The notes under the pieces: model-generated
What the model was told of the DNA's origin: nothing
Databases searched by the model: none
The model's input: the letters and a program-made list of their open reading frames with translations, nothing else
In this document: positions 23,109-23,933 of the stretch, piece after piece
Layout: each line of letters begins with the position of its first letter
Numbering within the stretch: the first letter of the stretch is position 1
Made by a program: the position numbers and the translations under genes
IMG/VR virus record: IMGVR_UViG_3300005253_002051
DNA length: 45,744 nucleotides
Strand: one strand, 5' to 3'
Source: a virus

Positions 23109-23136
23109 TTGACATATACCCGATCCATGCTATTAT
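23109..23136 (+). promoter_or_regulatory. sigma70-type promoter (TTGACA-N16-TATTAT)
   Basis: TTGACA at 23109-23114 and TATTAT at 23131-23136, upstream of the 23172 start. Confidence 0.5.
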
Positions 23137-23171
23137 TGTGTTGAGACATATCAGAATGAGGGAGACCAAAC

Positions 23172-23933
23172 ATGGATCGCACAATTGAAGAACTAATGAC
23201 CTTGGTTAGCGAACACGAAGAGACTAAAAATATTGCAGTGGCCGAGAATAAGTCCAAATCTGAATTCCTAGCCAATATGAGTCATGAGCTTAGAACGCCG
23301 TTAAATGCTATCATTGGCTTCTCTGAAATTATGACGAGCGGAATAGGCGGAGAATTGTCCGATAAACATAAAGCATATGCCAATGACATTTTTGAAAGTG
23401 GTCATCACTTGCTCAAGTTAATCAACGATATTCTTGATCTCTCAAAAATTGAGGCTGGTAAGACTGAAATCCATCCAGAAAAAATTAGTATGTGTTCGGT
23501 CTTTAAAGACTGTATCACACTTATCGCTGAAAGAGCACAAGAAAAGTCAATCAATGTTGAAGTTAAGACAAGTTGTGACGATCTATATGTATATGCTGAT
23601 CCGATTCGGTTAAAACAAATTATATTGAATTTACTGTCGAATTCTGTTAAGTTTACTGATGTGAATGGCAACATTGATATCAAATGCCTTGTTGGTGATA
23701 ATGTAATTATTGTCATTGAAGATGATGGAATAGGCATGGACGAAGACGGAGTGAAGTCTGCTCTGTTAAAATTCGGGCAAGTAGGTGCTGGATTGGGTCG
23801 ACAATATGAGGGCACAGGTTTAGGATTGCCGTTATCTGTAGAGCTAGCAGAACTTATGGGCGGCAATATTGATGTCGTAAGCGAATTAGGAGTTGGAACG
23901 ACTGTTACTCTAACGTTGCCGAAAGCAAAATAA
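23172..23933 (+). CDS. orphan cytoplasmic histidine kinase core (HisKA + HATPase_c only; no sensor or TM domain, no adjacent response regulator)
   Basis: H-box FLANMSHELRTPLNAIIGFSEIM. N-box LLSNSVKFT. G1 IEDDGIGMD. G2 GTGLGLPLSVELAELMGG. Confidence 0.85.
   Translation: MDRTIEELMTLVSEHEETKNIAVAENKSKSEFLANMSHELRTPLNAIIGFSEIMTSGIGGELSDKHKAYANDIFESGHHLLKLINDILDLSKIEAGKTEIHPEKISMCSVFKDCITLIAERAQEKSINVEVKTSCDDLYVYADPIRLKQIILNLLSNSVKFTDVNGNIDIKCLVGDNVIIVIEDDGIGMDEDGVKSALLKFGQVGAGLGRQYEGTGLGLPLSVELAELMGGNIDVVSELGVGTTVTLTLPKAK

Follow-up and report, generated by a model that had tools for sequence, protein, structure and literature searches.

Phages are known to manipulate host signalling via small inhibitor proteins and Ser/Thr kinases, among them T7 gp0.7, an early phage kinase that reprograms host proteins. 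Here we describe a histidine kinase gene in a 45,744-bp contig from a marine sediment metagenome (LAZR01; record IMGVR_UViG_3300005253_002051), whose full length is called the window below. T7 gp0.7 is a Ser/Thr kinase of unrelated fold and chemistry and takes no part in two-component phosphotransfer. Clostridioides difficile phage phiCDHM1 offers a closer parallel, since it encodes an AgrC homologue without AgrA, which was proposed to act via a host regulator (PMC4124054). This is a phage histidine kinase without a regulator, as in the window, but it belongs to another family, is a membrane peptide receptor that has kept its sensor and sits with agrB and agrD in the lysogenic-conversion module of a temperate phage. 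A histidine kinase/CheY-like gene has also been annotated in Alteromonas phage V22 (PMC7289586), and PHROGs already has kinase families that match the window protein, all of them of unknown function. In the searchable literature, no paper was found in which a histidine kinase from a phage acts on a host regulator, and none that describes a phage FixL-type PAS-kinase or a natural series of sensor alleles.

Isolated transmitter cores of histidine kinases generally no longer respond to the input signal. HK853cp and EnvZc (PDB 2c2a, 3dge) consist of the same dimerization and histidine phosphotransfer (DHp) and catalytic ATP-binding (CA) domains as the window kinase, share its motifs and are about as long (31-35% identity, Foldseek E ~1e-18, phmmer E ~1e-41). 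However, these are laboratory truncations of membrane sensors, while the window kinase represents a natural truncation, fixed in a phage lineage and under selection. PleC, DivJ and PdhS are orphan cell-cycle kinases of Alphaproteobacteria, and the closest cellular relatives of the window kinase are likewise mostly alphaproteobacterial, orphan and non-hybrid; some of these relatives have the same residues, NAGFIDES, at the specificity positions of the DHp, a widespread motif. The window kinase differs from PleC, DivJ and PdhS in sequence (43-49% identity, with equivalog cut-offs missed), in lacking large N-terminal localization or sensor regions and in being phage-encoded. The FixL H-box reads HELNQPL, and the DHp sequence of the window kinase, SHELRTPLNAIIGFSE, is not FixL-like; in addition, the window protein has no PAS domain and no FixJ is present. 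FixL is nevertheless relevant, as a sister allele of the window kinase at a related locus (L005) shares with it a heme-PAS match and the soluble PAS-coiled coil-DHp-CA layout, although this allele scores only 154 bits against a cut-off of 850 with the FixL model of NCBIfam. In FixL, O2 on the heme-PAS strongly represses kinase activity (PMC8534201).

The kinase gene of the window and the parts of its product are as follows.

23172-23933, plus strand: histidine kinase coding sequence, sensor-less allele, 253 amino acids (aa), KKN46801.1
23184-23252, plus strand: helical stalk at the N-terminus, residues 5-27, running on into DHp helix 1 (AlphaFold helix 5-56)
23253-23459, plus strand: DHp / HisKA domain, residues 28-96 (Pfam HisKA)
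23598-23927, plus strand: catalytic ATP-binding domain HATPase_c, residues 143-252, with N, G1, F and G2 boxes (Pfam)

The protein was deposited as "hypothetical protein LCGC14_0669300". A Pfam scan identified HisKA (residues 28-96, E 7.6e-23) and HATPase_c (residues 143-252, E 6.6e-25) and no further domain. In an alignment of the window protein with 16 relatives the H-box SHELRTP with the phospho-acceptor His38 (codon 23283-23285) is invariant, and so are N153 and N157 of the N box, D184, G186 and G188 of G1, F201, and G214, G216 and G218 of G2. Residues 29-44 are likewise invariant and the HExxT phosphatase motif is intact; since the acidic residue beside the histidine and the threonine of this motif are both kept, kinase and phosphatase reactions are both possible. 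The AlphaFold monomer model (predicted local distance difference test, pLDDT, 76) has an unbroken helix at residues 5-56 and a second helix at 64-94, followed by an alpha/beta CA domain resembling the CA folds of HK853, RetS and DivL. Closest PDB folds found with Foldseek were HK853 (in complex with RR468), GacS, RetS and DivL (E 1e-18 to 1e-15), and sequence searches matched GacS at 2e-42 and HK853 at 3e-41. H-box, ATP-binding boxes, DHp hairpin and CA sandwich are thus all present, as in the core of class I (HisKA-type) histidine kinases, in agreement with the complete DHp and catalytic core described in an earlier note on this DNA. Cores of this class form a homodimer with a four-helix bundle and autophosphorylate with ATP, and the window protein would be expected to do so too.

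The same note had reported about 40 residues ahead of the H-box and neither a transmembrane (TM) segment nor a sensor domain, and these statements hold. His38 is preceded by 37 residues, and an in-frame stop four codons 5' of the ATG makes a longer N-terminus impossible. The Kyte-Doolittle maximum over 19 residues is 1.23, well under the level of TM segments, so a TM segment is absent, and the two Pfam domains leave none for sensing. Neither a fused input domain nor an adjacent regulator, as found in canonical two-component systems, was detected.

Ratios of nonsynonymous to synonymous substitution rates (dN/dS), calculated by the Nei-Gojobori method for the kinase core, were 0.17 in the comparison with a 95%-identical relative and 0.12-0.15 in those with alleles bearing a PAS domain or TM segments; two further sensor-less alleles, at dS 1.1-1.5, gave 0.09-0.12. 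Such values indicate that the sensor-less kinase is under strong purifying selection and that its gene is functional, which excludes a decaying remnant.

The window kinase and 13 protein clusters (P0001-P0013, 71-95% identity) form a phage clade that was monophyletic in 300/300 bootstraps. The next matches have at most 57% identity, and the best match among 185,579 species genomes reaches 49%. Alleles at related phage loci occupy the same genomic slot and differ at the N-terminus, as listed here together with an outgroup.

no sensor, 253 aa: window, L002-4, L006-8, L293, L294
no sensor, 257 aa: P0004
PAS remnant, last PAS strand only, 288-301 aa: P0013, P0011, L010 (L010 = 301 aa)
full PAS domain, 410 aa: L005:6120-7352 (P0008)
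full PAS domain, 426 aa: outgroup L011
PilJ/NarX-like P-box region flanked by two TM segments, 443 aa: L012:538-1869

The PAS domain of L005 matches the heme domain of FixL from Bradyrhizobium japonicum with E 2.6e-28, the heme-PAS of DosP being next (~1e-12), and both the histidine aligned to the FixL heme ligand and the arginine following it are conserved. A PAS domain of the FixL heme type is found in P0008/L005 and is missing from the window protein. These matches suggest that the sister alleles are phage kinases reading oxygen or other respiratory cues. The term "sensor-less" in the earlier note is correct for the window allele, yet not as a native design, since sister alleles in the slot carry a FixL-type heme-PAS or a TM sensor. 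Since the outgroup as well as a member of the clade has a PAS domain, a PAS-kinase is the ancestral state. A marine Rhodospirillaceae PAS-kinase (P0078) was considered as a donor and rejected, as its PAS is unrelated and its overall identity is 39%. Short alleles start with M-[C/D]-RTIEE, within the post-PAS linker, and the stalk region of the window kinase aligns with this linker in P0008 (QRTIEEQAQDHL...). By this alignment, the stalk at residues 5-27 is a remnant of the PAS-to-DHp signalling helix.

Sequences flanking the kinase gene bear on both its origin and its expression.

22593-23030, plus strand: hsp20 small heat-shock gene, a separate transcription unit (Pfam HSP20, E 2.1e-19)
23060-23075, plus strand: conserved AT-rich motif CTTAATAAAGTATTAA 5' of the hairpin (from relatives)
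23073-23105, plus strand: terminator-like hairpin with a 15-bp stem, ending the hsp20 unit directly 5' of the kinase promoter
23109-23136, plus strand: sigma70-type promoter, -35 TTGACA at 23109-23114, 16-nt spacer, extended -10 TGcTATTAT (hexamer 23131-23136)
23158-23164, plus strand: Shine-Dalgarno sequence GAGGGAG, 7 nt before the ATG (read from the sequence)
23935-24018, plus strand: tRNA-Leu(CAA), beginning 2 nt after the kinase stop (ARAGORN)

A promoter of its own had been proposed for the kinase in the earlier note, and the comparison with relatives supports it. The site matches 11/12 consensus positions and is the top-scoring one of the region. In the window, L293, L294, L005 and L010 the -35 hexamer is unchanged and the -10 has the form TAnnAT; the same was read from the sequence upstream of the L011 gene. 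Variants of the -10 among relatives include TATAAT, TAGCAT, TATGCT and TACTAT, and the spacer sequence has diverged. The promoter is kept even in relatives whose kinase genes are near synonymous saturation. Sites of the form TTGACA-N16-18-TAnnnT number 12 on the plus strand of the window and one on the minus strand, compared with 1.2 +/- 1.0 in shuffles, and most are intergenic, 8-60 nt before starts of open reading frames (ORFs) (8969, 17380, 20669, 23172, 37394 and others). The kinase thus has the host-type (sigma70) promoter that would be expected if it serves a T4-like phage as an early or auxiliary gene, and judging from its promoters the contig as a whole resembles an early or accessory region. 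No enrichment of the T4 late motif TATAAATA was seen in the window. Reading the conserved TGCTTGACA as a T4 MotA box was rejected: it occurs in three copies where 0.6 are expected in the window, and a -35 hexamer with its flanks is the simplest explanation.

The hairpin preceding the promoter folds at -18.2 kcal/mol (z = -7.0 against shuffles). Across five relatives 75/75 cells are paired, with two compensatory pairs, compared with 40-67% in slid controls, and in the outgroup L011 a different stem sequence in the same place folds at -17.3 kcal/mol. A consensus terminator scan did not call the hairpin, which has a short T-tail, and found no terminator in the scanned region. The motif CTTAATAAAGTATTAA is conserved throughout the clade; it is present in the window, where it has a single copy, and in L293, L294, L005, L010 and L012. 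PAS-bearing and other alleles have a homologous Shine-Dalgarno sequence, GAAGGAG or AAAGGAG. With promoter, hairpin and Shine-Dalgarno sequence homologous among alleles and the start located inside the post-PAS linker, an in-frame deletion is indicated and not a new start. We conclude from these alignments that the sensor was lost by an in-frame deletion in which promoter, ribosome-binding site and start codon were kept. The anatomy and evolution of the kinase locus are the solid part of our account.

The junction of kinase and tRNA-Leu is kept in L002-L008, L010, L293 and L294, and the tRNA is probably co-transcribed from the kinase promoter. Kinases of L011 and L012 adjoin other tRNA-like sequences. 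The anticodon stem of the tRNA-Leu shows paired changes among relatives, CTGGA/TCCAG versus CCAGA/TCTGG. On the other side, hsp20 lies 5' of the kinase in L002, L003, L005-L008, L010, L293 and L294, with hairpin and promoter separating the two genes; L012 is an exception, having a tRNA and not hsp20 5' of the kinase slot.

The gene content of the window and its relatives indicates that the element is a T4-like phage, uncultured and from marine sediment, confirming the phage-like nature assumed earlier. The window has three tRNAs (ARAGORN), nearly all genes on one strand and many host-like accessory genes. Its gp30.3 homologue (Pfam E 1.3e-58) is related to proteins in 1507 phage records, the best matches (64-67% identity) coming from Caulobacter phages CcrPW and CcrColossus and from Sinorhizobium phages. 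A related 142-kb contig is syntenic with the window and encodes a 95%-identical kinase. On it, a 1664-aa subtilase (96% identity), orthologous to the last large gene of the window, is followed by a 1072-aa protein matching many PHROG tail-fibre families and then by RCC1-repeat proteins and MazG; the same stretch has a DNA-polymerase fragment and a clamp-loader ATPase. The GC content around the kinase is 36%, the same as that of its surroundings, so the gene is not a fresh acquisition. The identical 253-aa protein recurs in other marine-sediment assemblies.

Searches for further members of the lineage gave mostly negative results. No near-identical DNA to the locus was found in GenBank phages. 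The best tblastn match, a 782-aa PleC-annotated kinase in MW462191 (44.6%), was rejected as a relative because of its bacterial-looking neighbourhood. That locus (L001, MW462191.1 12580-29290, "Bacteriophage sp. contig405706") encodes aminopeptidase N, GlnE, a ParS/CprR two-component pair, HtrA and HigB, and the record may be a misfiled bacterial contig. In IMG/VR, a protein scan with the kinase gave only a 30% partial match, the 16-mer upstream motif hit 120 unrelated loci, none with a kinase, and so was not specific enough, and a 27-mer of the tRNA-Leu found nothing; the kinase lineage appears to be absent from the IMG/VR collection searched. In a scan of metagenome_contigs with the alignment of the clade, bacterial kinases of at most 50% identity saturated the results and no clade member was recovered.

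A partner regulator was sought with a hidden Markov model (HMM) of the receiver (REC) domain, built from CheY, Spo0F and the corresponding domains of five hybrid relatives. The model recovered CprR of an unrelated control locus at 6e-20. Run on all six translated frames of the window, where the earlier note had already seen no response regulator, it detected no REC domain (best E = 8). The result was equally negative for 12 loci belonging to the phage lineage and for 43 kb from the related 142-kb contig; in all, ~220 kb of related loci were scanned. The cognate regulator that the earlier note proposed to look for elsewhere in the genome was thus not found in these sequences. Pfam detected no Response_reg, Hpt, PAS, GAF or H-NOX domain among ~60 scanned ORFs of the window, and a search for exact records of the terminal proteins, which could have extended the sequence past the contig ends, found none.

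In the absence of a receiver from the readable phage regions, and with an early-type promoter, a host response regulator, the kind of target already suggested in the earlier note, is the most economical one, and we propose the following sequence of events. Within the phage lineage, an in-frame deletion would have removed a FixL-type heme-PAS from an ancestral phage PAS-kinase, leaving promoter, ribosome-binding site, start codon, signalling-helix stub, DHp and CA untouched. Transcription would start from the host-type sigma70 promoter, as expected of an early gene, and the 253-aa protein would dimerize via its long N-terminal helix and DHp bundle. As O2 bound to the heme-PAS of FixL represses kinase activity, removal of such a domain should leave the core unresponsive to that signal. 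Without an input domain holding the kinase off, His38 would be autophosphorylated constitutively, and the phosphoryl group, or HExxT-dependent phosphatase activity, would act on a host response regulator. One host pathway would then be locked in a fixed state during infection. We infer constitutive activity from the loss of the input domain, early expression from the promoter sequence and a host target from the receiver searches. That all of this applies, namely that a functional T4-like phage histidine kinase derived by PAS deletion acts early and constitutively on a host response regulator, we hold with moderate confidence, judging the chances to be about even.

The closest cellular relatives of the kinase are mostly alphaproteobacterial, orphan and non-hybrid, and 42/80 of them have no regulator within 500 bp. 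The designation as an orphan in the earlier note therefore stands insofar as no regulator was found, but it is not distinctive. The specificity-position signature of the window DHp (HK853-equivalent positions), NAGFIDES, recurs unchanged in some orphan alphaproteobacterial kinases and differs from that of most hybrids, and the motif is widespread. DivJ was the best or second-best NCBIfam model for 7/8 scanned relatives (isolates and metagenome-assembled genomes). A DivK/PleD-like regulator of an alphaproteobacterial host is a speculative target suggested by these comparisons. Kinase relatives and best gp30.3 matches give weak hints of such a host.

Several observations weigh against the proposed constitutive action on a host regulator. 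The DHp signature is common to many kinases and singles out no partner. On NCBIfam models the window kinase scores higher with TorS (204 bits) than with DivJ (172, cut-off 1000) or PdhS (151, cut-off 2000), and assignment to a named kinase family was rejected since no equivalog passes its cut-off. A short sensor-less orphan kinase (P0027, 298 aa, 53% identity) is found on a 784-kb bacterial contig between clpX-lon-hupB and the nuo operon. Such chromosomal short kinases have the same coiled-coil stub, DHp and CA and no adjacent regulator, and fall outside the phage clade; with short orphan kinases on bacterial chromosomes, architecture alone implies no takeover role. Sensor-less forms are not monophyletic (3/300 bootstraps) and P0003 groups with the 301-aa forms, which points to recombination or repeated loss and not to one simple event. 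The sequence fits an input-less core resting in the kinase or in the phosphatase state alike. Finally, a receiver encoded by the phage itself is possible in the ~85 kb of the 142-kb related genome outside the ~57 kb examined.

The allele series could also be read as a "sensor-swappable" early kinase, in which the same core and promoter are combined with a heme-PAS for O2, with a PilJ/NarX-like sensor, possibly for nitrate or another extracellular cue, or with nothing. Takeover would thereby be coupled to, or deliberately uncoupled from, the respiratory environment of the host, the kinase directly setting how far a host regulator (such as DivK/PleD or a FixJ-like protein) is phosphorylated. We offer this as a tentative idea, on balance unlikely to be correct in full. 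If true, the window would hold the constitutive allele, an "always take over" version, and the phage would be the first virus seen to hijack bacterial two-component phosphotransfer by its own kinase.

Among alternatives to a kinase acting on a host regulator, the first is that the partner is phage-encoded. A regulator or phosphotransfer protein elsewhere in the ~140-kb genome would make this a split phage two-component system that times phage genes. Large phages do carry regulators, as the histidine kinase/CheY-like gene of Alteromonas phage V22 illustrates (PMC7289586), distant partners are normal for orphan kinases among the nearest cellular relatives, and ~57 kb of a ~142-kb genome were examined (window, L002 and L297). 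Against this, the 45.7-kb contig, the 12 loci and the 25-kb stretch L297 contain no REC domain by an HMM that finds its control at 6e-20, Response_reg and Hpt are missing from the ~60 ORFs, and kinase-regulator pairs that are acquired together are normally adjacent. We therefore regard a phage-encoded partner as doubtful.

Another possibility is that the protein is an inhibitor or a sink, either forming DHp heteromers with a related host kinase in the manner of RetS and GacS, or working mainly as a phosphatase, so that a host regulator is drained of phosphate and a stress or defence response of the host is shut down. The intact HExxT motif would permit the latter, while close structural matches include the RetS kinase region and the DHp co-complex of RetS and GacS, and a truncated dimerization module could poison a host kinase. 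However, a pure decoy would not need the N, G1, F and G2 boxes, which are invariant under strong purifying selection, and identity of at most 57% to any cellular kinase makes specific heterodimerization less likely; an inhibitory role is accordingly improbable in our judgement.

A kinase regulated by a separate phage or host protein, or by a small molecule, binding to stalk, DHp or CA (compare H-NOX/HnoK, KipI/KinA and Sda) seems decidedly unlikely. Stand-alone sensors that partner input-less kinases exist in bacteria (examples in PMC8534201), many small ORFs without known function adjoin the gene, and hsp20 is a constant neighbour. Yet no NosP, H-NOX, PAS or GAF protein is encoded among the ~60 ORFs scanned in the contig, the hairpin and promoter stand between hsp20 and the kinase, and the ORFs 3' of the kinase vary among relatives. 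The weakest alternative, a decaying and functionless remnant of a captured PAS-kinase, would account for the lost input domain and the intermediate alleles of 288-301 aa, but it is highly improbable and effectively refuted by dN/dS of 0.09-0.17, also between sensor-less alleles at near-saturated dS, together with the invariance of all catalytic motifs, the conserved promoter, Shine-Dalgarno sequence and start codon, and the occurrence of the identical protein in several independent metagenomes.

The alleles in one slot, with heme-PAS, TM sensor, PAS remnant or no sensor, in effect constitute a ready-made structure-function experiment on input gating, and they suggest that oxygen or further respiratory cues may be sensed by phages of sediments. 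Should the sensor-less allele encode a kinase that acts constitutively on a host regulator, this would represent a new mechanism of takeover, and the gene would also offer a small, portable means of forcing a two-component pathway into its active state.

Other genes of the element include an 858-aa protein (17380-19956, plus strand) with major-vault-protein shoulder and Vault_3 domains, preceded by a sigma70-like promoter at 17292-17320 and present in all relatives. Among 50,697 phage records, similar proteins were found only in LR756500, LR756501 and LR756503 ("huge phage"), at 39-40% full-length identity. Parts of a Tad/Flp pilus are encoded at 30586-33458 (plus strand), where RcpC/CpaB (365 aa, Pfam E 2.7e-32) is followed by a 585-aa protein of unknown family; this segment is GC-rich (46% versus ~38%), its RcpC/CpaB has homologues at ~60% identity, and a related contig has a Flp pilin gene just 5' of it (L003:12923-13108). 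A transporter-like set at 6304-15354 (plus strand), also with raised GC content (42-46%), comprises two NMT1/phosphonate-binding-like proteins, one of them fused to OmpA, a VWA protein, an ABC permease and an ABC ATPase.

The subtilase at 39252-44264 (plus strand; listed with L297:15050-18268) is a 1670-aa S8 protease with eight He_PIG Ig-like repeats. Because its orthologue lies directly 5' of the tail-fibre-like gene on the 142-kb contig, it may be virion-associated. At 20669-21273 the relatives show an indel, with a glutaredoxin gene and a SufBD-like gene between DUF3307 and DUF1508 in L002:5687-8102, L003 and L294 that are missing in the window and L006-L008. Several genes on the plus strand are related to proteostasis, namely a CtpA-like S41 protease with a PDZ domain (3048-4301), Hsp20 (22593-23030) and a ClpS adaptor (35014-35418), and a DnaJ-type zinc-finger mini-protein is encoded at 2120-2344.

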